In this document: in pieces, positions 1,941 through 40,105 of the stretch
Layout of the letters: each line of letters opens with the position of its first letter
How positions within the stretch are numbered: position 1 is the first letter of the stretch
Made by a program: the position numbers and the translations under genes
Assembly: GCA_964615375.1 (NCBI GenBank)
Contig: CAZTOW010000012.1
Location: 1-64,000, forward strand
Source of the DNA: an uncultured Enterobacterales bacterium
GTDB lineage: Bacteria; Myxococcota_A; UBA796; CAZKWG01
Reading direction: 5' to 3'
Length of the DNA stretch: 64,000 nucleotides
Notes under the pieces: generated by a model
Database searches by the model: none
The model's input: the letters and a program-made list of their open reading frames with translations, nothing else
Told to the model about the DNA's origin: nothing

Positions 1941-3716
1941 ATGACGCTCGCCCTGCTCTCGCTGCTCGGCTGCGAGCCGACCACCGGCAAGGTCCCCGGC
2001 GTGGTCGACAGCGCCCTCGACACCGCCAGCCCCCAGGACAGCCAGCCCTCCGAGGACCCCGACCCCGCGATCGAGCCCGTCCCCGGCACGGATCTGGACG
2101 ACGAGGGCTGCCCCACGCTCTACCAGCAGGACCGCCTCCCCGTCTTCGAGCTGGAGATCACCGAGGAGGACTGGGCGGCCTTGGAGGCTGACTACAGCAC
2201 GGGCGTCGAGCAGTACCACCCGACGACCTTCCTCTACCGGAACGCCTCCGGCGGCGAGCTGCGCGTCGAGGACGCCAGCGTGCGCCTGCGCGGCAACCCC
2301 GGCTTCTCCTGGATCGGCGAGAAGATGCAGTTCGGGATCGCGTTCAACGAGGAGGACCCGGAGGGGCGCTTCCTCGGGCTGCGCCACCTGAGCCTGGACG
2401 CCGTCTGGTACGAGCCGTCCATGCTGCGCGACCGGCTGGCCTACGCCTACCTGCGCCGCCTGGGCGTGCCCGCCCCCTGCGCCAACAACGCGGAGCTCTG
2501 GGTGAACGGCGCCTATTACGGTCTCTACAAGAATGTAGAGTACCCCGACCGGGAGTGGGTGGAGCGCGTCTTCGGCGACGACGACGCGACGGGCGTGCTG
2601 TGGAAGTACGGCAGCGATCCGACCGTCAACGCCGAGAGCGCCGACGCCGCGCACATGGCCGAGTTCTGGGCCAACACCAGCGTCGCCTGGCAGGAGGCTC
2701 ACACCGACCTGGACGCCAACGTGCTGGAGTGGGCGGGGGAGGTCGTGCTCCCGCAGAACGACGGCTACTGGTGCTGCAACCACAACTTCTACTTGTATGA
2801 GCACCCCACGCGCGGCATCCTGTTCCTGCCCTGGGACATGGACTTCGCGTTTGACGACACGCCCTACTTCGCCGACCCCAACACCTTCTATCGTGACTCC
2901 AACTACCAGCCGCACCTGGACGCCGTCAGCGCCGACCCCACCTGGGGCCCGGTCTTCCTGTCCGCGCTGCGGGAGGCGGTGGACGCCTATGACCCCGACC
3001 TGATGCAGGGCTGGCTGGACGAGTGGCAGGCGCAGATCGCGGCCTCCCACGCGGCCGATCCCCACACGCCCCACTCGGTGCAGACCCAACAGGACGCCTA
3101 CGAGAGGTTGCGCGCCTATCTGCGCAACCGCCACGCCTGGATGGACGCCTGGGTGCGCTGTCGAGAGGGCGAGGGGGACGGGGACGGCGACGGCGTCGGC
3201 CCCTGCTCTGACTGCGACGACGCGGACGCCAGCATCTACCCCGGGGCGACGGAGACCTGCGACGGACGCGACACCGACTGCGACGGGCTCGTGGACGACG
3301 CGCTCGGCTGCGACACCTGCGACGCCTACAGCTTCGAGTCCGGCGAGTTCCGTCTCTGCACGACGCCGATGAGCTGGGAGGACGCGCAGGCCGCCTGCGA
3401 GGCCGAGGGGGGCGAGCTCGGGTTCCCTCTCAGCTCTGGCGAGTGGTACGTGTACTGGTTGCACCAGTACTGGCAGGAGCTCGCCTGGCTCGGCGTCAGC
3501 ACCTGGTGGCTCGGGGCCACCGACGCGGCCAGTGAGGGGACCTGGCTCACGCCGAGCGGAGAGCCCGCTTCCCCCTGGGCGAGCTGGGGCGCGGGCACCC
3601 CCAACGGCGGCGCCTCCGAGCAGTGCGCCATGACCAGCCCGTACACCTGGACCTGGGACGACGCGGACTGCGCGCTGGAGAAGCCCGCGTTCTGCCGGGT
3701 GGAGCTGGGGCCTTGA
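1941..3716 (+). CDS. CotH kinase-family lipoprotein with C-terminal MopE-like Cys/Asp motif and C-type lectin domain
   Basis: Lipobox LLSLLGC. CotH-like core (LRDRLAYAYLRRLGVPAPCANNAELWVNGAYYGLYKNVE). Acidic GEGDGDGDG linker. CSDCDDADASIYPGATETCDGRDTDCDG motif. C-type lectin signature (WLGATDAASEGTW ... CAMTSPYTWTWDDADC). Confidence 0.8.
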   Translation: MTLALLSLLGCEPTTGKVPGVVDSALDTASPQDSQPSEDPDPAIEPVPGTDLDDEGCPTLYQQDRLPVFELEITEEDWAALEADYSTGVEQYHPTTFLYRNASGGELRVEDASVRLRGNPGFSWIGEKMQFGIAFNEEDPEGRFLGLRHLSLDAVWYEPSMLRDRLAYAYLRRLGVPAPCANNAELWVNGAYYGLYKNVEYPDREWVERVFGDDDATGVLWKYGSDPTVNAESADAAHMAEFWANTSVAWQEAHTDLDANVLEWAGEVVLPQNDGYWCCNHNFYLYEHPTRGILFLPWDMDFAFDDTPYFADPNTFYRDSNYQPHLDAVSADPTWGPVFLSALREAVDAYDPDLMQGWLDEWQAQIAASHAADPHTPHSVQTQQDAYERLRAYLRNRHAWMDAWVRCREGEGDGDGDGVGPCSDCDDADASIYPGATETCDGRDTDCDGLVDDALGCDTCDAYSFESGEFRLCTTPMSWEDAQAACEAEGGELGFPLSSGEWYVYWLHQYWQELAWLGVSTWWLGATDAASEGTWLTPSGEPASPWASWGAGTPNGGASEQCAMTSPYTWTWDDADCALEKPAFCRVELGP

Positions 3717-3731
3717 GCCGTGGATCAGCCC

Positions 3732-4262
3732 TCACCGAGGCCGGATCCGCACCACGCGCGTCCCCGCGACCAGATCGTGCAGACAGCGGCGGTCCTTGCG
3801 GAAGATGAACAGGCTGTCGAGAATCAGCGCGGGCAGCGGCAGCAGCCCGCAAGAGGCCGCGCTCAGCACCCAGTACACCAGGAGCGGCAGCAGACCGCGC
3901 AACAGGAGCCGGTTCCCGGGCTTCTCTTCGCCCAGGATGTCTACGACCTGGAGCCCCAGGAGCCGCTTCCCCACGCTCTGCCCGGAGCGCCAGAGCAGGT
4001 AGAGCTGAAGGACCTGCCAGAGCGCGTAGGGCGCGATCAGGAGGGGCAAGGCGGCGTCGCTCGCGTCGAACACGTCGTTGGTGAGCCTCCACTCGCCCAC
4101 CTGCGAAGAGGCGAACATGCTCCCGATCGCCGCCAGGCTCGCGCCGCCCATGTCCACGAGCGCGGCCAGGAGCCGCTCCCCCCGGCTCGCCAGCTCGGAC
4201 AGATCGGGCTCGGGATCGGCCAGGACCGCCAGCGGAGGCTGATAGGGGTTGTGCTCGGCCAT
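3732..4262 (-). CDS. RDD family membrane protein
   Basis: GQSVGKRLLGLQVVD ... CLHDLVAGTRVV RDD motif with hydrophobic segments. The overlapping + strand ORF is a GC-frame artefact. Confidence 0.7.
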   Translation of the reverse strand: MAEHNPYQPPLAVLADPEPDLSELASRGERLLAALVDMGGASLAAIGSMFASSQVGEWRLTNDVFDASDAALPLLIAPYALWQVLQLYLLWRSGQSVGKRLLGLQVVDILGEEKPGNRLLLRGLLPLLVYWVLSAASCGLLPLPALILDSLFIFRKDRRCLHDLVAGTRVVRIRPR

Positions 4263-4314
4263 GACGCATCATAGCCCAGATGCATCGAGGCCCTCGTCGC
4301 CCGGGGAGGTCGTC

Positions 4315-5388
4315 ATGCTCACCATCCTCTTCTTCGCCTGCCACGCTGACGGCCCCGCGGTCGTCTCCGCCGAGGAGCTGGGCATCGTCAGCCAGAGCGA
4401 GGCCATCCAGGGGCGCGACGGCGGTCAGAGCGCGCGGCTGTGGGGGCGCTCGGTCTGGACCTACGGCGACACCGTGCTGAACGTGAACGACGTGGACGGA
4501 CGGAACTGGCACCACAACTCGGTGTCCTGGACCGAGGATCTGGACGCCACCGACGGCGTGGACGATCTCACCGAGCCCCTGGACGAGGTCGGCGCGCCCG
4601 CCTACCTCATCGCCCCCACCGACGACGAGCGCACGTTGAACGAGGCCCACTGGGACGACGGCGACTGCGAGGAGCCCTGCGGCGCCCGCTGGGCCGTCTG
4701 GCCCGGCAGCCCCGTCTGGGACGAGCAGAACCAGCGCGCGATCCTGTTCTATGGCCTCATCTACGCCGAGCCCGGGGACTTCAATTTCGAGGGGAAGGGG
4801 AGCTCCATCGCCCTCTGGACCGACCCCGACGGCCCCGCCGAGCGCCCCACCATCGGCCGCGTCGCCGATCATCCGGACCTGATCTGGGCCGAGGACGAGG
4901 GCGAGCTCGGCAACGGCTCCGCCATCGAGGACGGCTACCTCTACACCTTCTCCTGCCCGCAGCGCGGGTGGAGCCGACCCTGCGGGCTCGCCCGCGCGCC
5001 CCTGGATGACGTGCAGGATCACGACGCCTGGCGCTTCTGGGATGGCCGGGCCTGGGGCGAGGACATGGACGCGGCCGAGGGCCTCTTCGACGGCGCGCCC
5101 ATCCTCTCCCTCGACTACAACCCCTACCTGAATTCCTGGCTCGTGGTGTACTCGCCCACGCTGAGCAGCCAGATCGTCGCGCGCACCGCGCCCGAGCTCA
5201 CCGGCCCCTGGTCGCGCGAGGCCGTGCTCTACGAGCCCACCGGCGCGGACGAGGACCCCTACGACGCCGTCGCCCACGCCGAGCTCGCCGAGGACGACGG
5301 GCGCGTGATCTACGTCACCTGGTCGCGGAGCAACGGGGTCGGCTGGTTCGGGACGGAGTTCGCGCTGCTGCGGGTGGAATTCGAGTGA
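4315..5388 (+). CDS. hypothetical secreted lipoprotein
   Basis: Start at MLTILFFAC (lipobox). Diverse composition; W/D-rich globular protein; no domain confidently recognised. Confidence 0.6.
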   Translation: MLTILFFACHADGPAVVSAEELGIVSQSEAIQGRDGGQSARLWGRSVWTYGDTVLNVNDVDGRNWHHNSVSWTEDLDATDGVDDLTEPLDEVGAPAYLIAPTDDERTLNEAHWDDGDCEEPCGARWAVWPGSPVWDEQNQRAILFYGLIYAEPGDFNFEGKGSSIALWTDPDGPAERPTIGRVADHPDLIWAEDEGELGNGSAIEDGYLYTFSCPQRGWSRPCGLARAPLDDVQDHDAWRFWDGRAWGEDMDAAEGLFDGAPILSLDYNPYLNSWLVVYSPTLSSQIVARTAPELTGPWSREAVLYEPTGADEDPYDAVAHAELAEDDGRVIYVTWSRSNGVGWFGTEFALLRVEFE

Positions 5389-9468: not shown

Positions 9469-11109
9469 ATGCCCGATCTCGACACGATCGTCATCGGCTC
9501 GGGGGCGGGCGGGCTCACGGCCGCGCTGGCGCTGGCGCAGGCGGGGCAGCGCGTGCTCGTGCTGGAGCAGCACTACCTCCCCGGCGGCTGGACCCACAGC
9601 TTCCCCCTGCACGGCCACCTCTTCAGCCCGGGCGTCCACTACATCGGCGGGCTGGGGCCGGACGGGGACTCGCGGCGCATCTACGAGGGCCTGGGCGTCT
9701 CGGGCGATCTGGTCTTCTGCGAGCTGAACCCGGACGGCTACGACCACATCCGCGTGGGCGAGCGGCGCGTCGATCTGGTCAAGGGCCGGGACCGCATGGC
9801 CGCGGTCCTGGGCGAGCAGTTCCCCGAGGATCGCGAGGGAATCGCCGGCTACCTGCGCGCGCACACCGAGATCGACCAGGGCGTGCGCGCGCTGAACGCC
9901 GCCCGCGGCCCCTGGGAGAAGGTCGGCGCCGTCGCCCGCCACCCGGCCCTGCCGCTGTGGGGGCTGGGCAGCCTGGACCGCATGCTCCGCCACTACGTGC
10001 GGGATCCGGTGGCGCGCATGGCGCTCTCCGCCCAGTGCGGGGATCACGGGCTCCCCCCGTCGCGGGCCCCGGCGGCGCTGCAGGCCGGGCTGTCCGCGCA
10101 CTACTTCGACGGGGCCTGGTACCCCATGGGCGGGGCGCGCTCCCTCCCGCGGGCCTTCATCCACGCCCTGCACCGGGCGGGCGGCGAGATCCGGGTAAAA
10201 GCCAGGGTGGAGAAGATCCTGGTCGAGCGGGCCGGCGGCGGCTGGAAGGCCAGCGGGGTCCAGCTGGCCGGGGGCGAGCGCATCACGGCCGCGCGGGTCA
10301 TCTCCAACGCCGACCCCGGCGTCACCTACGGGCGGCTGGTGGACCCCGAGGCCCAGGGCCCGGCGATCCGAAAGAAGCTCGGCGGCGCGCGCTGGTCGGT
10401 CTCCTGCCTCAGCCTGTTCATGGCGGCGGAGATCGACCCCGTCCAGCTCGGCCTGGACTCAGGGAACTACTGGCTCTTCGACGACGCTGACCCGGAGTCG
10501 GCCTTCCGCTTCGACGGGGGCCTGGACGGGCTGCTGCGCATGCCCGCCCTCTTCCTCACGGTCACCACGCTCAAGGACCCCACCAAGCTCAAGGGCGGGG
10601 TCCACACGATGGAGGCCTTCGCGCTGGTGCCTTACGCGCCGTTCGCCGCCTGGGCCTCGGGCGAGCCCGGGGAGCGGGGAGCCGATTACGAGGCCCTCAA
10701 GCAGCGCTTGAAGGACCGGATGATCGAGCGGCTCTCGCGCGTGCTGCCGGACCTGCGGGAGCGGCTCCACTTCGCCGAGCTCGGCACGCCGGTCACCAAC
10801 CACTACTACTGTGAGGCGACCGCGGGCTCCATGTACGGCACGGAGAAGACCATGAGCCAGCTGGGGCCCTGGTCCTTCCCCATCGAGAGCGAGATCGCCG
10901 GCCTCTACCTCTGCGGAGCCAGCACGCTCTCCCACGGCGTCATGGGGGCCACGATGTCCGGGCTGGTGGCGGCGGGGCGGGTGCTGGGCCTGCGCCGGCA
11001 GGAGCTGCTGCGCCAGCAGGGGCCCGCGCTGCGCACGGTGCCGGCCGACCACCCCGAGCGCTGGCCCGAGGACCTCCAGGCCCGGCTCAGGCGACCCGAC
11101 GAGGCCTGA
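9469..11109 (+). CDS. NAD(P)/FAD-dependent oxidoreductase, phytoene-desaturase (CrtI) family
   Basis: DTIVIGSGAGGLTAALALAQAGQRVLVLEQ FAD-binding motif. ATG lies 2 nt after the upstream stop. The long N-terminal extension in the ORF track (from 8503) is antisense to the epimerase and rejected. Confidence 0.8.
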   Translation: MPDLDTIVIGSGAGGLTAALALAQAGQRVLVLEQHYLPGGWTHSFPLHGHLFSPGVHYIGGLGPDGDSRRIYEGLGVSGDLVFCELNPDGYDHIRVGERRVDLVKGRDRMAAVLGEQFPEDREGIAGYLRAHTEIDQGVRALNAARGPWEKVGAVARHPALPLWGLGSLDRMLRHYVRDPVARMALSAQCGDHGLPPSRAPAALQAGLSAHYFDGAWYPMGGARSLPRAFIHALHRAGGEIRVKARVEKILVERAGGGWKASGVQLAGGERITAARVISNADPGVTYGRLVDPEAQGPAIRKKLGGARWSVSCLSLFMAAEIDPVQLGLDSGNYWLFDDADPESAFRFDGGLDGLLRMPALFLTVTTLKDPTKLKGGVHTMEAFALVPYAPFAAWASGEPGERGADYEALKQRLKDRMIERLSRVLPDLRERLHFAELGTPVTNHYYCEATAGSMYGTEKTMSQLGPWSFPIESEIAGLYLCGASTLSHGVMGATMSGLVAAGRVLGLRRQELLRQQGPALRTVPADHPERWPEDLQARLRRPDEA

Positions 11110-32697: not shown

Positions 32698-34662
32698 ATG
32701 GTCAAGCCACCCGCGAAGCTCCACTGGTACCTGAACCGCCTGCGCAGCATGCCGCCGGCCGAGCTGCCCCACCGCGCTCGGGAGCTGGTGAAGAAGCGCC
32801 TGGATCGGCACGGGGTGGCGGCGCGGCTGGCGGCGCGGCTGCCCGAGGCGGCGCTCTCGGCCCCACTGCCGGCCCTGCCCGTGGATCGCGCGCTCCTGGT
32901 GGAGAGCCTCGCGGGGGAGCGCGCGCGCCTGCGCCGGCTCACCGAGGAGCTCCTCCGGGGTGAGCTGACCCTGCTGGGGCAGCCCTGGCCCCCGGGCAGC
33001 CGGCGCGACTGGCAGCTCGACCCGGAGAGCGGCGAGCGCTGGCCCGCCGACCGGGGCTGCCACGACATCCCCTACCGGCAGGAGTCCGGTCCGGGGGACG
33101 TGAAATTCGTGTGGGAGTTGAACCGGCTCCAGCACCTCGTCGTGCTGGCGCTCGGCGCCGTGGCGCTGGACGAGCCCCGCGCGGCCGAGGCGGTCTGGGG
33201 GGACCTGGAGGCCTGGATCGACGAGAACCCGCCCTACCGCGGCGTGTCCTGGGCCTGCGGCATCGAGCTGGCCAGCCGCGTCGCCTCCATCCTGGCGGTC
33301 CTCGGGATCCTGGGCCCCGAGCGTGCGCCGGCCTCGCTGCGGCCGAAGCTGCAGCGCAGCCTGTACGCCCACGGCCTCTTCATGGCGCGCTACCCGAGCC
33401 GCTTCTCCAGCGCGAACAACCACCTGATCGCCGAGGCGGCGGCGCTGCTGCTGCTCGGGCTGCTGGCCCCCCACCTGCCGGGGGCGGCGGGCTGGGAGGC
33501 CGAGGGGCGGGAGGAGCTGGAGCGCGAGGTGCTGCTCCAGATCTTCGCCGACGGGGTGGGCGGCGAGCAGGCCCCCACCTACACGGCCTACACCCTGGAG
33601 TGGTACACGCTGGCCCGCCAGGTCGCGCGGGCCGCGGGGAGGCCGCTCTCGGAGGCGGTGGATCGGCGGCTGGGGCTCGCGCTGCTGCACCTCCACGCGA
33701 TCATGGACCGCTCGGGCAACGTGCCGCACCTGGGCGACGACGACGGGGCGGTGGTGCTGCGGGCCTCCTGGGATCGCGAGGACGACGTGCGCAGCGTCAT
33801 GGGCGCGCTGGCCGGGCTGCTGGGCCGACCCGAGCTCGCGCCCCCAGGAGCGCGACAGGACGCGCTGGCCGGGCTGCTGGGGGCGCGGGTGCCGACCGGG
33901 GGCTGGACGGCGCCGCCGGGGCGCTCCTTCGTCGAGGGCGGGGTCACGGCGCTGCGCCACGCGGAGGGCGAGCGCGAGCTGCTGGCGGTGCTGGACCACG
34001 GTCCCCTGGGCTACGGGCCCATCGCGGCCCACGGTCACGCCGACGCGCTCTCGTTGTGTGTCCACCTGGACGGGGTCCCGCTCCTGGTCGATCCCGGGGC
34101 CTACCGCTACAACCACTCCGGCGGCTGGCGCGAGCACCTGCGCAGCACGGCCGCCCACAACACCATCGAGGTGGGCGGCCTCTCCCAGAGCGTGCCCACG
34201 GGGTCCTTCAACTGGGGCGCCCGCGCCGTCTCCACCCGCGAGTCGCTGAGCCTGGGCGCGGAGCAGAGCCGCGTCGCCGCCACCCACGACGGCTACCGCG
34301 CGCGCCTGGGCGTCCTGCACCGGCGGGCGGTGTCGCTCGAGGGCCTGGCCACCCTGCGCGTGGAGGATGAGCTGCTGGGCACCGGGTCCCGGCCCGCGCG
34401 GATCACCTGGCAGCTGGGGCCGGACTGGGCGCTGGAGCCCGCGGGCGGGGGCTGGCTGGCGCGCGGGCCGCGGGGGCTGCTGGTGCGGATCTCCGTAGAG
34501 GGCGCGCCGCTCTCGGCGACGGTGCTCCAGGGCGGAGAGAGTCCAGGTTCAGGGGTGATCTCGCCCTCCTACAACCGCCTCGTCCCCGCCCCCTGCCTGG
34601 CGCTGGAGGGGGAGGCCCGCCTGCCCGCGAAGTGGGCTTGGACCTTCGTGATCACGCGCTGA
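32698..34662 (+). CDS. heparinase II/III-like (alginate-lyase superfamily) protein
   Basis: N-terminal alginate-lyase-like helical domain; C-terminal HGHADALSLCVHLDG heparinase II/III signature. Confidence 0.8.
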   Translation: MVKPPAKLHWYLNRLRSMPPAELPHRARELVKKRLDRHGVAARLAARLPEAALSAPLPALPVDRALLVESLAGERARLRRLTEELLRGELTLLGQPWPPGSRRDWQLDPESGERWPADRGCHDIPYRQESGPGDVKFVWELNRLQHLVVLALGAVALDEPRAAEAVWGDLEAWIDENPPYRGVSWACGIELASRVASILAVLGILGPERAPASLRPKLQRSLYAHGLFMARYPSRFSSANNHLIAEAAALLLLGLLAPHLPGAAGWEAEGREELEREVLLQIFADGVGGEQAPTYTAYTLEWYTLARQVARAAGRPLSEAVDRRLGLALLHLHAIMDRSGNVPHLGDDDGAVVLRASWDREDDVRSVMGALAGLLGRPELAPPGARQDALAGLLGARVPTGGWTAPPGRSFVEGGVTALRHAEGERELLAVLDHGPLGYGPIAAHGHADALSLCVHLDGVPLLVDPGAYRYNHSGGWREHLRSTAAHNTIEVGGLSQSVPTGSFNWGARAVSTRESLSLGAEQSRVAATHDGYRARLGVLHRRAVSLEGLATLRVEDELLGTGSRPARITWQLGPDWALEPAGGGWLARGPRGLLVRISVEGAPLSATVLQGGESPGSGVISPSYNRLVPAPCLALEGEARLPAKWAWTFVITR

Positions 34663-34685
34663 AGCGGCGCGGTGGAGGCGGGCAA

Positions 34686-34743
34686 TGAAGCGGACATAAT
34701 CTGTCCGCGCCAATTTTGAAGCGGACAGATTATGTCCGCATAC
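34686..34743. promoter_or_regulatory. tandem pair of 7-bp-stem hairpins (TGAAGCGGACA-N5-TGTCCGC) forming a composite inverted repeat
   Basis: Seen directly: GCGGACATAATCTGTCCGC and GCGGACAGATTATGTCCGC, 12 nt apart. The loops are reverse complements of each other. Lies 55 bp upstream of the 34799 ORF. Confidence 0.5.
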
Positions 34744-34798
34744 GCCGTCAGCACAGGAATGGCCTTGCTATGTTGAGTGGGTCAGAAATGGAGGCCCG

Positions 34799-35212
34799 AT
34801 GTCCTGCTCTCTCGCCACTCTCGTCCTCTCGCTGATCTTCGGCTTCGACAGCGCCATCGTCTGCGGGATCGGCTCCTGCGATCTGCCCGCGGAGCTGCAC
34901 CTGGAGAACGAGCGTTACGACACCCTCCCCGCCGACGAGTGGTCCTGGATGAACCACGATCTCGCGCTGGCCCGCGTGGCGCTGGCCAACGGTGATCACA
35001 ACCGCGCCGAGAACATCGGCCGATGGCTGGAGCATGCCATCGACCTGCGCATGGACGCCATGGTCGACGGGCGCGGGAAGCGCCGGGTCAAGGCCCTGAA
35101 CCGCGCGGTGAACGGGATCATCTCCGGCTCTGCCATCCGCACCGGCGGGATCGCTGGGTTCAAGGGGAGCTCTTCCGAGATCCCCGTGCATCGCCCGGGC
35201 GCTCAGGGCTGA
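34799..35212 (+). CDS. hypothetical small secreted/membrane protein
   Basis: GGAGG RBS; hydrophobic N-terminus; 137 aa; no recognised domain. Confidence 0.5.
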   Translation: MSCSLATLVLSLIFGFDSAIVCGIGSCDLPAELHLENERYDTLPADEWSWMNHDLALARVALANGDHNRAENIGRWLEHAIDLRMDAMVDGRGKRRVKALNRAVNGIISGSAIRTGGIAGFKGSSSEIPVHRPGAQG

Positions 35213-35225
35213 GCTGCGCGACGGC

Positions 35226-35450
35226 TCAGTCCTTCGGCTCCTCGCTCGCCGGCTTCGGCGGGCGCGGCCGGGAGCGATCATAGCGGCGCATCAGCTCGTC
35301 CACCGCGTCCGGGGCGCGGTCGACGGGCGCCTCCTCGGCGGCGGCCTTCGCGGCGCGGGCGGCGCGGGTCTTCCTCAGGCGGCGCGCGAGCTCCAGCGTG
35401 AGGCGCTCCGCGTCGTCGATGGGCAGCTCTGTAGATCGCTTCTTCGGCAT
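35226..35450 (-). CDS. small highly charged hypothetical protein (74 aa) downstream of the AmmeMemoRadiSam radical SAM gene
   Basis: Begins MPKKRSTELPIDD; 17-nt gap after the radical SAM stop. Lys/Arg/Glu/Ala-rich. Confidence 0.45.
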   Translation of the reverse strand: MPKKRSTELPIDDAERLTLELARRLRKTRAARAAKAAAEEAPVDRAPDAVDELMRRYDRSRPRPPKPASEEPKD

Positions 35451-35469
35451 CACGGGCTCCGAGGGCAGA

Positions 35470-36588
35470 CTAAGGGCGCTCCCCGCGCTCGCGCAAGGGG
35501 GATCGGTGCAGATCCCGCAGCCGGACGGGCAGGCGCCGCGCTCCCCAGGCGCCGGGCCGAGCCTCGAAGCGCCCGGGGATCGCCAGCCCACAGCGCGCGC
35601 AGCGGCCCGCGGGGTCCAGCCCCCAGCGCCCCAGGTGGTAGCCGTCGCGCTCGATGATCAGGGCCTGGCAGCCGGGACACCAGGTGCTGGAGCCGGCGCG
35701 ATCGGAAACGTTGCCCAGGTAGACGTAGCGCAGGCCGCTCTCCAGGGCGATCTGGCGCGCGCGCTGCAGCGTCCGGGGCGGGGTGGGCGGGCGGTTCAGC
35801 TTGAAGTCCGGGTGGTAGGCCGTAAAGTGCAGGGGCACGTTCGGGGAGAGCTCGCCCGCGACGAAGGCGCAGAGCCGCGCGATCTCCTCGTCGGAGTCGT
35901 TCTCCTCGGGGATGAGCAGGGTGGTGATCTCCGTCCAGACCTTGGACTCGTGGACCAGCCAGCGCAGGGTCTCCTTGACCGGCTCCAGGCGCCCGTAGCA
36001 GAGCTCCTTGTAAAAGCGCTCGGTGAAGCCCTTGAGATCGACGTTGGTCGCGTCCATGGCGGCGAAGAACTCGGGGCGGGCCAGCTCGCTGATGTAGCCG
36101 GCGGTGACGGCCACGGTGGCGATGCCGCGCTCCCGGCAGGCCCGCGCCACGTCGATGGCGTACTCGGCGAAGATCACGGGGTCGTTGTAGGTGAAGGCCA
36201 CGCTGCGGCTGCCGGTGAGCTGCGCGGCCTCGGCGATGTCCTCGGGGCCCGCCTCGTCCTGCAGGCGGTCGAGCTCGCGCGCCTTGGAGATGTCCCAGTT
36301 CTGGCAGAAGCGGCAGCCCAGGTTGCAGCCGGCGGTGCCAAACGAGAGCACCGGGGTGCCGGGCAGGAAGTGGAAGAGCGGCTTCTTCTCGATGGGGTCC
36401 ACGCAGAAGCCCGAGGACCGCCCGTAGGTGTCCAGCACGACGCCCTGGTCGGTGGCCTTGCGGACGAAGCAGAAGGCGCGCTGGCCCGGGCTCAGGTGGC
36501 AGCGGCGCGGGCAGAGCTCGCAGACCATCCGCTCGCCCTCCCAGCGCCACCAGCGCGCAGGGTGCGGCGAGGACGCGGTGGCGCTCAC
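35470..36588 (-). CDS. AmmeMemoRadiSam system radical SAM enzyme
   Basis: CELCPRRC N-terminal motif plus CNLGCRFCQNWDIS radical SAM cluster motif, characteristic of the AmmeMemoRadiSam radical SAM family (pyruvate-formate-lyase-activase-like). Confidence 0.85.
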   Translation of the reverse strand: MSATASSPHPARWWRWEGERMVCELCPRRCHLSPGQRAFCFVRKATDQGVVLDTYGRSSGFCVDPIEKKPLFHFLPGTPVLSFGTAGCNLGCRFCQNWDISKARELDRLQDEAGPEDIAEAAQLTGSRSVAFTYNDPVIFAEYAIDVARACRERGIATVAVTAGYISELARPEFFAAMDATNVDLKGFTERFYKELCYGRLEPVKETLRWLVHESKVWTEITTLLIPEENDSDEEIARLCAFVAGELSPNVPLHFTAYHPDFKLNRPPTPPRTLQRARQIALESGLRYVYLGNVSDRAGSSTWCPGCQALIIERDGYHLGRWGLDPAGRCARCGLAIPGRFEARPGAWGARRLPVRLRDLHRSPLRERGERP

Positions 36589-37820
36589 GGCTGAACCTCC
36601 TTGCGCACGGCGAAGCGCTCCACGGTGATCGGCTCGTGCGCGCCGATCCCGGCCTTGCGGCGGGTGATCGCGAGCTGGCGCTCTACCGTGTCCACGCCCT
36701 CGATGTCCGGCAGCAGCACGCCGCGTCGCCCGCCCGAGCTCACCACCACGCCCCAGCGCCGCGGGTCCAGGGCGCCGAGGTCCGGGGCGGGCTCGGGCGG
36801 CTCGAGCACGCTGACCTCGATGTCCAGGTCGTCCAGCTCGTGGGGTCCGAGCGGCGGGAAGCGCGGATCCTGGAACGCGCTGCTGCGGGCGACCTCGGCC
36901 ACCTCCTCGTACAGGCGGCCGCGGGTGGCGGCCATGTGGCCGATGCAGCCGCGCAGCTCGCCCTGGCGGTAGAGGGTGACGAAGACCCCGGCCGAGGGCT
37001 CGCCCCCCTCGGGCGGCAGGTACTTCCGGCCCTCCAGGCGGGCGCGGATGGAGGCGCGGGCCACGGCGTAAAGGGGCGGGCTCGGGTCGTAGAGCACGGC
37101 CTCGCTGTAGCCCACCCCCCAGGGGCCCTCGTAGGCGAGCACCTCGTCGTGCAGCGGGCCAGGGGTCGTGGCCATGGCGAAGGCGGTGCTGTCGACCACG
37201 TCCTCCGCGGCGAGCTCACGCGGGCCGGCAGCCAGCGCATCCTCCCAGCGCCCGGCGCGCAGGGCGGCCACGAAGGCGCGATCGAAGTCCTGGGCCCGCG
37301 GGTGGTAGCCCGAGGGGGCGCCGGGCTTCAGCCGGTGGCTCATGTCGCCGCTGGCGATGACGGCCGTGCGGCCGGGGAGCGCGGCCACGGCCTCGGCCAG
37401 GACCCGGGGATCCTCGCTCCTCCAGGGCAGCGCGAGGACGGCGGTGGGGCCGCGCCAGCCCTCCTCCCACAGGAAGGCGAGCGGGACCATGGCGCCGTGG
37501 TCCAGGGGGCGCGGGGCGATGGCCTCGGCCCCGGTGGCGGCGCGCACCTCGGGGGCGTCGGGCAGGTCCACCGCGATCTGCGGGGCGCGGAAGTCGGCCA
37601 GGCTGCCCTGATGGCGCCCGGTCCAGGCCCCCCAGGCGTCCTCCCGCCGCGGCGAGTGGGGCGAGACCAGCACGATCCGTTCGGGTCGGCTCCCTACCGC
37701 CCGGCGGGCGATCTCGCGCATGGCGCGGGTGGTGGACCGGCAACGATCGGCCTCGGGCCCGGCGACCGCGGGGACGACGATCGGTGCGTGACACATGAGC
37801 GCGGCGAAGCAGGTCGACAT
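36585..37820 (-). CDS. AmmeMemoRadiSam system protein B (Memo/extradiol-dioxygenase class III-like) fused to protein A (AMMECR1 domain)
   Basis: N-terminal half is Memo-like (IVLVSPHSP, ASGDMSH). C-terminal half is AMMECR1 (GVFVTLYRQGELRGCIGH). Stop overlaps the radical SAM start. Confidence 0.8.
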   Translation of the reverse strand: MSTCFAALMCHAPIVVPAVAGPEADRCRSTTRAMREIARRAVGSRPERIVLVSPHSPRREDAWGAWTGRHQGSLADFRAPQIAVDLPDAPEVRAATGAEAIAPRPLDHGAMVPLAFLWEEGWRGPTAVLALPWRSEDPRVLAEAVAALPGRTAVIASGDMSHRLKPGAPSGYHPRAQDFDRAFVAALRAGRWEDALAAGPRELAAEDVVDSTAFAMATTPGPLHDEVLAYEGPWGVGYSEAVLYDPSPPLYAVARASIRARLEGRKYLPPEGGEPSAGVFVTLYRQGELRGCIGHMAATRGRLYEEVAEVARSSAFQDPRFPPLGPHELDDLDIEVSVLEPPEPAPDLGALDPRRWGVVVSSGGRRGVLLPDIEGVDTVERQLAITRRKAGIGAHEPITVERFAVRKEVQP

Positions 37821-37855
37821 ACCCGAAGATAAGGACGGGAGAGGGGATCGGGAAC

Positions 37856-38824
37856 ATGGCGCTCTTCGTCACGGGCGGCAACGGCTTCATCGGGTCGCGG
37901 GTGGTCGCGGCGGCGCGCGCGCGCGGGGACGAGGTGCGCTGCCTGCTGCGGGCCAGCTCCAACACCTCCCGCATCGAGGGGCTCGGCTACCAGCGCCACC
38001 TGGGCGACGTCACCGACCGCGCCAGCCTCGTCGAGGGGATGCGCGGCTGCGAGGGGGTGATTCACCTTGCTAGTATATCTAGTTGGTCCCAGATCCGCAG
38101 CCCGAAGATGCGCGAGGTGGTGGTGGGCGGCACGGAGAACGTGCTGGCCGCGGCGCGCGAGGCGGGCGGGCTCCGGGTGGTCTTCGTGAGCTCGGGCACG
38201 GCCATCCAGGGGACGAAGGACCCGCGGGTGCTCGACGAGCGCGCCGCCTGGGACATGGACCGCGAGGTCTTCCTGTACGCCGCCGCCAAGCACGACGCCG
38301 AGCAGATCTGCGCCTGCTACGCCGCCGAGGGGCTGCCGGTGGTCACCGTGAACCCGTGCGAGGTCTACGGCCCGCAGGACGAGGAGCTGATCACCGCGGC
38401 CAACCTCATCGACATCCTGAAGGGCTGGCCGGCGCTCGCCGTGGAGGGCGGGACGGCGGTGGCCCACGTCGACGACGTGGCGGCGGGGATCCTGGCGGCC
38501 CTGGACCGCGGGCGGCCGGGCGAGCGCTACATCCTGGGGGGCGAGAACCTGAGCGTGCGGCAGCTCGTGGAGCTGACCCTGGAGATCGGCGGGCAGAAGA
38601 AGTGGGTGTTGCAGCTGCCGAACGGGGTCGTGAAGGGCGCGGTGGGGGCGCTGGCGAAGCTGGGGCTCCCGACGCCCGTGATCCCGGACGTGCTGGACTA
38701 CGCCTGCCTCTACTGGTGGGTGGACAGCGCCAAGGCGCAGCGCGAGCTGGGCTACCGCTACCGCCCGCCCCGGGAGGTGCTGGAGCCCACCATCGCCTGG
38801 CTGCGCGAGCGCGGGCGTGTCTGA
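37856..38824 (+). CDS. NAD-dependent epimerase/dehydratase (HpnA / dihydroflavonol-reductase-like)
   Basis: LFVTGGNGFIGSRVV Rossmann motif; YAAAK catalytic motif. Contains an odd low-GC patch at 38055-38095. Confidence 0.85.
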   Translation: MALFVTGGNGFIGSRVVAAARARGDEVRCLLRASSNTSRIEGLGYQRHLGDVTDRASLVEGMRGCEGVIHLASISSWSQIRSPKMREVVVGGTENVLAAAREAGGLRVVFVSSGTAIQGTKDPRVLDERAAWDMDREVFLYAAAKHDAEQICACYAAEGLPVVTVNPCEVYGPQDEELITAANLIDILKGWPALAVEGGTAVAHVDDVAAGILAALDRGRPGERYILGGENLSVRQLVELTLEIGGQKKWVLQLPNGVVKGAVGALAKLGLPTPVIPDVLDYACLYWWVDSAKAQRELGYRYRPPREVLEPTIAWLRERGRV

Positions 38825-38839
38825 GGCGGGCGGGCCGGC

Positions 38840-40105
38840 TCACTCCGGCCAGGGCGGCGGCACCTCCCCCGGGTGGGCCTCCGTGAGGTCCAGCAGGAGG
38901 AGGATCGCGGCGCTGAGGTAGGTGCCCTGCAGATCGTCGCCCACCACCCCCGCGTCCACCGTGGCGTCGAAGTCCGCCTTCAGGTCCGTGAGCGTGTCGC
39001 GCTCGTCCTCCGTGATCTCCTCCGATCCCAGCACCCCGGCCAGCAGGGCCGAGGCGTCCGCGGCGTCCTCCACGGACAGCTCCTGCTCGCCCTGGTCCTC
39101 GTAGCGGGCCTCGTCGTTGGCGAAGGTGGTGATCAGGTTGGCCAGGAAGCGGCTGTGATCGCGGATCGTGCGGTAGTCGATGGTCTCGGCGTCGTCGTCC
39201 ACCGTGTGGTACCAGGTCATCCCCGGGCTGACGAACCAGAAGGCCGGGACGGGCACGTCCTGCTCGTAGAAGGGGTCCTGGTCGCTGGCGAAGACGGGGA
39301 TGGGGCCGCGGTTGACGAAGGTGACGTCCATGTCGGCGGTCGCCGCGACGTCTCGCACGGCCTCCTTCAGCTCGGGGCAGCGCTCCAGCCCCAGCAGGAT
39401 GAGCGGCCAGTAGTCGGGCAGCAGGCCGCGGCCCAGCGGATCGATGGAGAAGGCCACGGCCACGTCCTCGAGGGACAGCGTCGGGTCGGAGGTCCAGTCG
39501 TAAGCGCCCTTGAGCCCGCCCTCCTCGCTGTCGGTGATGAGCAGGAGCACCGAGCGGTCCAGGCTCACGCCCTCCTCGACCAGCACGCGCGCGACCTCCA
39601 GCAGCGTCGCCACGCCGGCCGCGTCGTCGAAGGCGCCGTTGTAGACCGCGCCCTCCTCCGTCACGCCCAGGTGGTCGTAGTGCGCCATGACCACCACGGT
39701 CTCCTGCGCGCGCTCGGGGTCGGAGCCCGGCAGCAGCGCGACGAGGTTGTCGCCCACGGTGGCCTCGATGGGGTAGACCGCGCCGTCCTCGTCCAGGGCC
39801 CAGCGCTCGCGGTCCAGCTCCAGATCGAAGCGGATGGTGTAGCCGCCGTCGTCGCCCACCGGCTCCAGGCCGATGGCGGCCAGCTCGCCCGCGATGTGGT
39901 CCCGCGCGATCCCGTGCCCCAGCGAGGTCGGCGTGCGCCCGCCCAGATCGTCGGACGCCAGGAATTCGATGTCCGCCTTGATCCGTGTCAGATCGATGGC
40001 GTCCAACACCTCGTCCGGGAGCGCGCTCGTCGCCTCGTCGGCGGAGTCGGGGGGCGCGGTCTCCTTGTCGGTGTCGCAGGCCGCGAGGAGGAGGAGGGAG
40101 AGCAT
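38840..40105 (-). CDS. M28 family metallopeptidase lipoprotein
   Basis: Lipobox LLLAAC. M28 zinc-ligand motifs (MAHYDHLG, DDAAGVATLLEVAR, ITDSEEGGLKG). Confidence 0.85.
   Translation of the reverse strand: MLSLLLLAACDTDKETAPPDSADEATSALPDEVLDAIDLTRIKADIEFLASDDLGGRTPTSLGHGIARDHIAGELAAIGLEPVGDDGGYTIRFDLELDRERWALDEDGAVYPIEATVGDNLVALLPGSDPERAQETVVVMAHYDHLGVTEEGAVYNGAFDDAAGVATLLEVARVLVEEGVSLDRSVLLLITDSEEGGLKGAYDWTSDPTLSLEDVAVAFSIDPLGRGLLPDYWPLILLGLERCPELKEAVRDVAATADMDVTFVNRGPIPVFASDQDPFYEQDVPVPAFWFVSPGMTWYHTVDDDAETIDYRTIRDHSRFLANLITTFANDEARYEDQGEQELSVEDAADASALLAGVLGSEEITEDERDTLTDLKADFDATVDAGVVGDDLQGTYLSAAILLLLDLTEAHPGEVPPPWPE

Follow-up and report, generated by a model that had tools for sequence, protein, structure and literature searches.

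Gene content and organization of the locus

We analyzed a 64-kb stretch of DNA (hereafter, the window), the minus strand of which carries 3 successive open reading frames (ORFs) at the coordinates given in a preliminary description of the same sequence. The first (36585–37820) encodes a 411-aa fusion protein with an N-terminal LigB-type domain and a C-terminal AMMECR1 domain; the second (35470–36588), which starts with GTG, encodes a 372-aa radical SAM enzyme of the TIGR04337 family; and the third (35226–35450), which starts with ATG, encodes a small basic protein of 74 aa and 8.4 kDa. On the plus strand, a gene (34799–35212) converges on the small ORF; it encodes a conserved hypothetical protein of 137 aa whose N-terminus is hydrophobic and contains Cys. 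The GC content at third codon positions (GC3) of the fusion gene, the radical SAM gene, and the small ORF (0.95, 0.96, and 0.92, respectively) equals that of neighboring real genes. An Rfam scan of positions 33000–39500 returned a single sub-threshold match, located within a coding region.

The stop codon of the fusion gene and the start codon of the radical SAM gene share a 4-nt overlap (GTGA) on the same strand, and the 2 genes constitute a translationally coupled two-gene module. The distance from the radical SAM stop codon to the start codon of the small ORF is 19 nt, rather than the 17 nt reported previously. The layout resembles the AmmeMemoRadiSam system (TIGR04335, protein A; TIGR04336, protein B; TIGR04337, radical SAM enzyme) in that the genes adjoin and overlap in one orientation and the cysteine motifs are identical, but differs from it in that the window contains no Memo-family B protein and the place beside the radical SAM gene is occupied by a LigB-type domain fused to protein A. 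Of the 3 families expected from the initial reading of the locus, HMM searches recovered 2, with TIGR04335 and TIGR04337 scoring above their cutoffs and TIGR04336 giving no match. The scores corroborate the identification of an AMMECR1 and TIGR04337 radical SAM module.

A LigB-type domain fused to AMMECR1

The C-terminal half of the fusion protein (aa 250–406; nt 36603–37073, minus strand) matches Pfam PF01871 with 138 bits and, across the same residues, TIGR04335 with 127.6 bits (cutoff 99). It carries the RGChG and DxRa motifs of AmmeMemoRadiSam protein A in the form of RGCIG (aa 290–294, within LRGCIG at 289–294) and DPRF (aa 318–321), and the fusion thus belongs to the protein A family. 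The N-terminal half (aa 1–245; nt 37086–37820, minus strand) matches PF02900 with 88.1 bits (gathering score 26.3) and has a LigB-like fold, which places it among the class III extradiol dioxygenases of the PCAD-Memo superfamily. The main paper on this superfamily is reportedly that of Burroughs and colleagues (2019, JBC).

The AlphaFold2 (AF2) model of the fusion (pLDDT 96, pTM 0.92) is confidently predicted as a single rigid body. The best Foldseek match of the C-terminal domain was PH0010 (1vaj; E = 3.5e-14), and that of the N-terminal domain was TK2203 (5hee; E = 4e-14), with the group of N-domain matches 5hee, 8ihg, 8iq8, 9j2l, and 1bou_B spanning E-values from 4e-14 to 1.6e-9. When set against TK2203 (5hee), 2-aminophenol 1,6-dioxygenase, 4,5-DOPA dioxygenase, and LigAB (1bou), the N-terminal domain shares with the LigB-type, class III extradiol dioxygenases the fold, the PF02900 match, and invariant His and Asp residues. 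It differs from them in being only 15% to 21% identical, in being fused to AMMECR1, and in having no aromatic-degradation genes around it. Ring cleavage is a putative activity here. Across 68 homologues of the fusion, H11, H55, D107, H108, D159, D207, Y230, G291, D318, and R320 are invariant, and C292 and H162 are conserved in at least 90%. From this conservation, H11, H55, H108, D159/H162, and D207 are candidate metal ligands of the LigB-type domain.

The protein had been described as a Memo-like/AMMECR1 fusion, a designation that holds for the AMMECR1 half only. Were the N-terminal half a true Memo (component B), the 2 genes would make up a complete three-component AmmeMemoRadiSam system. 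LigB and Memo do have a common fold and ancestry; BLASTP against a Myxococcus Memo pairs SPH with GPSHH and SGDMSH with SSDLSH (E = 0.03); Foldseek recovers MEMO1 structures at E-values of about 3e-6; and JGI labels some homologues of the fusion “MEMO1 family protein.” However, the N-terminal 245 aa yielded no match to TIGR04336 or the Memo family PF01875 at E ≤ 1 in HMM searches, whereas a genuine Memo used as a control (from Myxococcus, locus L079) scored 255.5 bits on TIGR04336 against a cutoff of 26. By Foldseek, enzymes of the LigB clade rank far above MEMO1 (TMt 0.73 versus 0.49; identity 21% versus 10%), and the modeled domain is nearer by fold to TK2203 and LigAB than to MEMO1. Furthermore, locus L016 encodes, beside a single radical SAM gene, both a LigB-AMMECR1 fusion and a separate pair of Memo and AMMECR1; therefore, the LigB-type domain and Memo are paralogous and do not represent one component. 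A tblastn search with the Myxococcus Memo as the query found no Memo-family gene in the window (best E = 0.41). We consider it very unlikely that the N-terminal half is a Memo, and “fused B+A” is, strictly, a wrong description, because this half is LigB-type and matches neither Memo nor TIGR04336.

The fusion is widespread. At E ≤ 1e-10, 1,204 database proteins match it, and PF02900 is present in all 120 of the matches listed, as is PF01871 in all of them save one truncated sequence; several of the listed matches bear the NCBI label “AmmeMemoRadiSam system protein A.” Among 80 radical SAM loci of other species, 8 carry the same kind of single-ORF fusion directly 5′ of the radical SAM gene, and in 35 a Memo gene is adjacent. 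AMMECR1 fusions with a neighboring ring-opening dioxygenase were described by Balaji and Aravind (2007; PMC2034487), who also proposed that a radical is relayed on a conserved cysteine. The arrangement reported there, an AMMECR1-dioxygenase fusion beside a conserved radical SAM enzyme, corresponds to the present one with no substantial difference in architecture. The fusion had been regarded as informative about the function of the system; because it was described in 2007 and has 1,204 database matches, it brings no new information on that question. The fusion and radical SAM pair is an already known, ordinary form of a widespread enzyme pair, here a routine copy, and the NCBI labels are automatic. 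For annotators, the relevant points are that entries of about 410 aa named “AmmeMemoRadiSam system protein A” carry a LigB-type domain, not Memo, and that a genuine Memo can be present alongside this domain.

The radical SAM enzyme

The radical SAM protein matches TIGR04337 over residues 12–357 with 578.4 bits (cutoff 220) and the Pfam Radical_SAM family with 67 bits. Both cysteine motifs recognized previously are present: the N-terminal CX2CX3C (CELCPRRC, residues 23–30) and CNLGCRFC (residues 88–95), which contains the CX3CX2C motif at C88/C92/C95. Two CX2C pairs lie toward the C-terminus (CPGC at 304 and CARC at 330).

The suggested resemblance to glycyl-radical activases was borne out: the protein matches TIGR02493 (pyruvate formate-lyase [PFL] activase) at E = 6.6e-15, and its closest solved structure by sequence is the PFL-activating enzyme 3c8f (E = 5e-7). 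PFL activase and other glycyl-radical activases are thus its nearest characterized relatives, whereas Balaji and Aravind (2007; PMC2034487) related the radical SAM enzyme of the neighborhood to MiaB. The enzyme differs from these activases in scoring far below their equivalog cutoffs (55 versus 232 bits), in possessing the additional N- and C-terminal Cys motifs, and in having no glycyl-radical enzyme nearby, the small ORF product being devoid of Gly.

The small ORF is a gene of an orphan family

The 74-aa protein is charged, as noted before, being rich in Arg, Ala, Pro, Glu, Asp, and Lys, with a pI of 9.85; it contains no Gly, Cys, or His. It consists of 2 conserved helical blocks, DAERLTLELARRL and DAVDELMRRYDRSRPR, separated by a variable linker, and the AF2 model places helices at residues 11–39 and 46–60 with low confidence. 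In the 11-sequence alignment of the family, Tyr, Ser, Thr, and Met residues within the 2 short conserved helices are invariant, and there is no invariant Gly. We found 10 homologues with 38% to 96% identity and with in-frame indels; dN/dS within the family ranges from 0.2 to 0.9.

Spurious ORFs are frequent in high-GC DNA, several overlapping ORFs occur at this very spot, and the protein is of low complexity, all of which would fit a chance open frame between 2 convergent genes in DNA of 72% GC. The evidence against that explanation makes it hardly credible: the small ORF has a coding-type GC1/GC2/GC3 pattern with a GC3 of 0.92, compared with 0.63–0.66 for the overlapping alternative frames; the GGAG box and the start codon are conserved; and gene finders predict the ORF in every lineage in which the locus was read. 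Because its GC3 is coding-like, it has 10 homologues, and synonymous third-position changes fall inside blocks of invariant residues, the small ORF is, judged from its sequence, a real gene. A longer, 121-aa version with a GTG start was discarded: it overlaps the radical SAM gene, is unconserved, and is absent from the protein collection. The small ORF had been termed unannotated, but the exact 74-aa sequence is already public (NCBI and Logan contigs).

Searches of Pfam, NCBIfam, and PDB sequences were carried out with the family members singly and as the 11-sequence alignment. No recurring Pfam match was obtained, only 5 isolated weak ones, each to one member (best E = 0.018); NCBIfam and PDB gave nothing below an E-value of about 4. 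When 1.84 billion representative proteins were searched with a profile, only 1 weak small homologue and 2 spurious repeat proteins were added. In JGI metagenome contigs, neither peptide patterns derived from the alignment nor a degenerate DNA pattern covering the LMxRYxRSxPR block found a match to the small ORF. The small ORF thus belongs to a new family of small, basic orphan proteins in this high-GC lineage, which the metagenome-assembled genome labels on related sequences suggest to be Myxococcota-like. Its product is a basic, helical protein that probably binds a partner.

Distribution and genomic context of the small ORF

The family was found only in one narrow clade. Of the 9 lineages with readable context, 7 have the small ORF directly 3′ of the radical SAM gene, in the same orientation and at a distance of 19 to 98 nt. 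In one of these lineages (L098–100), the radical SAM-small ORF pair is kept despite a different 3′ neighbor. Given the adjacency in 7 of 9 lineages, including the one with a changed 3′ neighbor, the linkage of the small ORF to the radical SAM gene may be under some selection. In the other 2 lineages (L001–5 and L091–93), the small ORF is instead preceded by a gene for an acidic double-disulfide repeat protein, and the loci of the L001 and L091 lineages contain no AMMECR1 or radical SAM gene near it. Assemblies with the small ORF but no neighboring module are NCBI GCA_964556105.1 and the Logan runs of L091–93. An earlier idea, that the small ORF travels with its 3′ neighbors only, was dropped once more lineages had been read, each junction being broken in just 1 or 2 of them.

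Outside the clade, tblastn and an unfiltered profile search detected no homologue at any of the 80 radical SAM loci of other species, 8 of which contain the same fusion as one ORF. Nor did any recurrent small ORF of any kind occur 3′ of the radical SAM gene across phyla. Conservation downstream of the system genes, proposed as the telling comparison, therefore holds for 7 of 9 lineages of the narrow clade and fails at all 80 loci of other species.

A promoter-like motif upstream of the small ORF

Upstream of the small ORF, we found a conserved promoter-like motif, TTGCGC-N14-CCCTTAGTCTG (35466–35496, minus strand), comprising a −35-like TTGCGC (35496–35491) and a −10-like TAGTCT (35472–35467), the TAG of which doubles as the radical SAM stop codon. 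The motif overlaps the last 15 codons of the radical SAM gene, which extend past the end of the TIGR04337 model. It is followed on the same strand by a GGAG Shine-Dalgarno-like box (35457–35460), 6 nt before the ATG of the small ORF; of 8 aligned upstream regions, 7 retain GGAG and 1 has GGAA. The family form of the motif, TTGCGC-N14-18-CCCKTAGNCTG, together with GGAG, precedes the small ORF in both genomic contexts and thus persists in L001–5 and L091–93, where the upstream gene is unrelated.

The motif was spotted by eye in the aligned upstream regions and afterwards tested as a pattern. It occurs once in the window, with 0 occurrences expected from shuffles, and, among 100 loci searched, only directly upstream of small ORF homologues. 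Its hexamers match sigma-70 weakly, and a generic sigma-70 promoter and terminator scan of positions 34600–38100 reported no sites. From the conservation of the motif, we infer that TTGCGC/TAGTCT serves as the promoter of the small ORF, which looks independently transcribed. A promoter of its own does not bar the small gene from acting with its neighbor.

Relationship of the small gene to the enzyme module

We favor, with a probability of roughly 80%, the reading that the region combines a known LigB-AMMECR1/radical SAM module with an independent orphan small gene equipped with its own promoter-like element and ribosome-binding site. The small gene would lie 3′ of the radical SAM stop codon by happenstance in the source lineage and is unlikely to be a component of the system. 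Since it is lineage-restricted and has an apparent promoter of its own, it is probably not the missing substrate.

The small ORF had been put forward as a candidate substrate or partner of the radical SAM enzyme. In its lineage-specific form, this proposal would make the small protein an accessory: either the radical SAM enzyme would modify it as a substrate, or it would bind the enzyme pair as an adaptor or chaperone. The same-orientation adjacency in 7 of 9 lineages and the survival of the pair in L098–100 agree with such a role, and the 2 short conserved helices, together with their invariant Tyr, Ser, Thr, and Met residues, would be fitting features for a docking peptide. However, no family member was found at the 80 radical SAM loci of other species, 8 with the same fusion among them, or in JGI metagenome contigs; the small ORF and its motif are retained beside an unrelated gene in 2 lineages; the gene has its own conserved promoter-like element; and the protein possesses neither a Gly to hold a glycyl radical nor a Cys to carry a radical. 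Moreover, the system spans many bacterial phyla, and its core chemistry cannot hinge on a clade-restricted peptide. An accessory role is thus unlikely, and its more specific form, a docking partner or a substrate modified on the invariant Tyr, Ser, Thr, or Met, is distinctly so. Lacking Gly, the 74-aa protein does not qualify as a GrcA-like glycyl-radical carrier; nor does it behave as a RiPP-like precursor, given its absence from the 80 loci, the missing maturase neighbor in L001 and L091, and its separate motif.

The practical outcome is negative: because it is clade-restricted and apparently transcribed alone, the small ORF is a poor candidate for, and should not be chased as, the general substrate of the AmmeMemoRadiSam radical SAM enzyme. 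If the accessory role were nevertheless true, the small protein would offer a first target amenable to experiments in an enzyme family without a known substrate.

Possible chemistry of the module

Our literature search retrieved no experimental paper on the function of the AmmeMemoRadiSam system, and, as far as we are aware, none of the family members has a demonstrated substrate. We also know of no TIGR04337-type radical SAM enzyme in eukaryotes, which do have AMMECR1 and Memo. What the module might do we infer from knowledge of the families. The PFL-activase-like enzyme would cleave SAM at a [4Fe-4S] cluster bound by CX3CX2C, yielding a 5′-deoxyadenosyl radical. One possible target of this radical is the AMMECR1 domain itself, at Gly291 (invariant) and Cys292 (near-invariant) in the RGCIG loop or close to them; the other is a small substrate, nucleotide-like or isoprenoid-like, that the AMMECR1 cleft would hold. 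With its invariant His and Asp residues, the fused LigB-type domain might then carry out a metal-dependent redox step on that substrate, the fusion serving to hold the LigB-type and AMMECR1 active sites together. If the target of the radical SAM enzyme is a protein, AMMECR1, as its universal partner, would be a more economical choice than a peptide confined to one clade.

Conservation of the convergent neighbor

The 137-aa protein encoded convergently to the small ORF has a GC3 of 0.89 and no NCBIfam match. Its gene lies outside the enzyme module. Homologues with 50% to 66% identity are convergent to the small ORF in L001, L006, L091, L094, and L095, and synteny with the small ORF is kept in 8 of 9 lineages.

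Gene layout and coding signal

All three minus-strand ORFs of the preliminary description were recovered at the same coordinates: a fusion gene (36585-37820, 411 aa), a radical SAM gene (35470-36588, 372 aa, GTG start), and a small ORF (35226-35450, 74 aa). The stop codon of the fusion gene and the start codon of the radical SAM gene overlap by 4 nt, and 19 nt, not the 17 nt previously given, separate the small ORF from the radical SAM gene. Third-position GC (0.95, 0.96, and 0.92, respectively, in window DNA of 72% GC) is that of real genes here, with values of 0.96-0.97 in adjoining genes with Pfam domains and 0.63-0.66 in overlapping alternative frames. The fusion gene start lies only 35 nt (37821-37855) from a divergent NAD-dependent epimerase/dehydratase gene (37856-38824, plus strand); because the intergenic space is this short, the promoters of both genes must overlap adjacent coding regions. 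A sub-threshold match to the Rfam COG3860 RNA (39037-39088, plus strand; 23.9 bits, E 0.035; gathering score 42.5) overlaps a gene for an M28 peptidase, within its coding region and on the strand opposite to it, and is probably due to chance.

The operon encodes a radical SAM enzyme and a LigB-AMMECR1 fusion

By its sequence, the 372-aa protein is an unambiguous member of TIGR04337, the "AmmeMemoRadiSam system radical SAM enzyme" (578 bits versus a cutoff of 220). The cysteine motifs noted earlier are present (CELCPRRC at residues 23-30 and CNLGCRFC at 88-95), along with 2 C-terminal CX2C pairs. The likeness to glycyl-radical activases was also borne out, in that pyruvate formate-lyase activase and other glycyl-radical activases are the closest characterised relatives, although scores against the activase families all fall far under those families' cutoffs.

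The 411-aa protein had been described as a fusion of Memo (protein B) and AMMECR1 (protein A), a reading that holds for its second half only. Residues 250-406 match TIGR04335 (protein A) above cutoff, as well as Pfam AMMECR1, and Foldseek matches the C domain to the archaeal AMMECR1 structures 1vaj, 1zq7, and 1wsc. The N-terminal 245 residues, by contrast, match Pfam LigB (PF02900, 88 bits) and neither Pfam Memo nor TIGR04336 (protein B), even at E ≤ 1; thus, among the 3 system models, TIGR04335 and TIGR04337 exceed their cutoffs and TIGR04336 does not match. As a control, the Memo protein from a canonical Memo-AMMECR1-radical SAM operon of a Myxococcus MAG scored 255 bits on TIGR04336, the cutoff of which is only 26. 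In BLASTP, this control matched the window N domain at E 0.03 only, with the SPH and SxDxSH motifs aligned, which is homology at the superfamily level. An AlphaFold model of the 411-aa protein built on 68 homologues was a single, very confident two-domain model (pLDDT 96, pTM 0.92). Foldseek against the PDB placed TK2203 first for the N domain (5hee; E 4e-14, TMt 0.73), followed by 2-aminophenol dioxygenase, DHPA dioxygenase, DOPA dioxygenase, and LigAB, whereas MEMO1 was matched at only E of about 3e-6 (TMt 0.49, 10% identity). On the profile matches and the fold comparison, we reject the assignment of the N-terminal domain to Memo; the label "B+A fusion" is imprecise because the domain is LigB-type. 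No Memo gene was detectable elsewhere within the 64-kb window. Invariant candidate catalytic residues of the fusion are H11, H55, D107, H108, D159, D207, G291, D318, and R320; H162 and C292 are at least 90% conserved.

These family memberships, the coupled genes, the invariant candidate residues, and the confident two-domain model are the observed basis for a possible working of the module. The activase-like radical SAM enzyme would generate a 5'-deoxyadenosyl radical, which would act either on the RGCIG loop of AMMECR1 or on a small substrate held in the cleft of that domain, and the fused LigB-type metal domain may perform a redox step on the same molecule. A later analysis from the Aravind group (Burroughs and colleagues, 2019) reportedly connected such systems with the modification of nucleotide bases and isoprenoids.

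The fusion is widespread and already annotated

The fused protein had been singled out as informative, but it is matched by 1,204 database proteins (E ≤ 1e-10), one NCBI copy is 100% identical, and several among the matches listed carry the NCBI label "AmmeMemoRadiSam system protein A." In the best 120 of the 1,204 matches, PF02900 is present in all and PF01871 in all but one truncated sequence. The neighbourhood of AMMECR1, a radical SAM enzyme, and a ring-opening dioxygenase, with AMMECR1 fused to that dioxygenase in some genes, was reported by Balaji and Aravind (2007; PMC2034487), who proposed that a radical is relayed on a conserved cysteine. The two-gene operon is therefore of a known kind and already annotated.

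We compared 80 radical SAM loci from other species (60-72% identity, many phyla). A single-ORF LigB-AMMECR1 fusion lies directly upstream of the radical SAM gene in 8, the 2 parts are divided by one stop codon in 1, a canonical Memo is found nearby in 35, and neither occurs within 5 kb in 35, counts that overlap and are not exhaustive. In one locus of a Verrucomicrobiota MAG (L016; coordinates 3429-4982 and 9889-11070), the fusion immediately precedes the radical SAM gene, and a canonical Memo and AMMECR1 pair is also present on the opposite strand, about 4 kb downstream. Both partner sets can thus coexist around one radical SAM enzyme, so the LigB-type and Memo-type sets are paralogous to each other and do not represent two versions of a single component. 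In the divided locus (L031, 3066-4970), the LigB-like and AMMECR1 parts share one reading frame with a single stop codon between them, which may reflect a pair that is not fused, a recent fission or fusion event, a sequencing error, or a pseudogene.

The small ORF is a clade-restricted orphan gene

The small ORF has 10 homologues (38-96% identity) with conserved blocks DAERLTLELARRL and DAVDELM(K/R)RY(D/S)RSxPR, joined by a variable linker with in-frame indels. Synonymous third-position changes occur within the invariant blocks (TAT/TAC, GAT/GAC, TCC/TCG, CGG/CGC/CGT), and whole-gene dN/dS is 0.2-0.9. Earlier described as unannotated, the ORF is called by gene finders in each lineage for which the locus was read, and a public collection (NCBI and Logan contigs) contains an identical 74-aa sequence. 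Pfam, NCBIfam, and PDB searches returned no meaningful match, and the structure model has 2 helices at low confidence. We conclude that this ORF is a genuine gene, an orphan confined to one clade.

With all heuristics disabled, a profile search recovered the family from the window and from loci retrieved via the small ORF itself, and from no others. Conservation downstream of radical SAM genes extends to the window and 6 other lineages (L006-9, L094-100), but to 0 of the 80 other-species loci (best E about 2); nor did any other recurrent small ORF appear 3' of the radical SAM gene across the phyla compared, and 2 scans of JGI metagenome contigs yielded no homologue. In 2 further lineages (L001-5, L091-93), the small ORF follows an acidic double-disulfide repeat protein (NF033662), and their contigs contain no AMMECR1, LigB, or radical SAM sequence. 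The upstream gene in L001 (2335-5901) encodes a very acidic protein of 1188 aa with 31 copies of the repeat, and that in L091/L092 is likewise very acidic.

Aligned upstream regions share (c)TTGCGC, about 17-18 nt, TAG(T/G/C)CT, about 6 nt, GGAG, about 6 nt, and ATG. The pattern TTGCGC-N14-18-CCCKTAGNCTG has a single match in the window (35466-35496, minus strand) and none in 100 shuffles; among 100 loci, it is found only before small-ORF homologues, in both contexts, and is intergenic in L006, L095, L098, L001, and L091. The radical SAM frame of the window clade is 15 codons longer than the family model (the TIGR04337 match stops at residue 357 of 372), crosses the motif, and terminates at the TAG of the -10-like box. 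We infer, rather than assign, a putative promoter plus ribosome-binding site, because the hexamers are weak and a generic promoter scan reported nothing.

The small protein had been proposed as a substrate or partner of the radical SAM enzyme. Gly, Cys, and His are all missing from the window's protein, and the family alignment shows no invariant Gly, so the protein cannot be a GrcA-like glycyl-radical carrier. A lineage-specific accessory of the system would also account for the adjacency, but we regard this as improbable given the absence of the family from the 80 other loci, its occurrence behind unrelated acidic repeat proteins, and its own conserved promoter-like element. We therefore place the small ORF outside the system; the likeliest identity of its product is a basic, helix-forming binding protein, unrelated to the module and made from its own putative promoter, and local synteny shared by related lineages best explains why the ORF lies beside the radical SAM gene.

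On the 3' side, a convergent gene of 137-181 aa and a heparinase II/III gene are kept in 8 of 9 lineages. From the mixed 5' and 3' contexts it follows that each junction is broken in only 1 or 2 lineages and that the small gene moves as a unit in its own right. In the window, the convergent gene (34799-35212, plus strand) encodes a 137-aa member of a conserved family without annotation, with a hydrophobic N-terminus bearing a conserved Cys, invariant W48, W50, N52, and D54 (A..ADEWSWMNHDL), and a charged, variable C-terminal tail. A near-perfect inverted repeat (34690-34739; GCGGACATAATCTGTCCGCGCCAA / TTGAAGCGGACAGATTATGTCCGC) lies in the 136 nt between the end of the heparinase II/III gene (34662) and the start of the 137-aa gene (34799). 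Its 24-nt arms are 92% complementary, with a 2-nt spacer, and it may be an operator or a terminator hairpin that lacks a T-tract.
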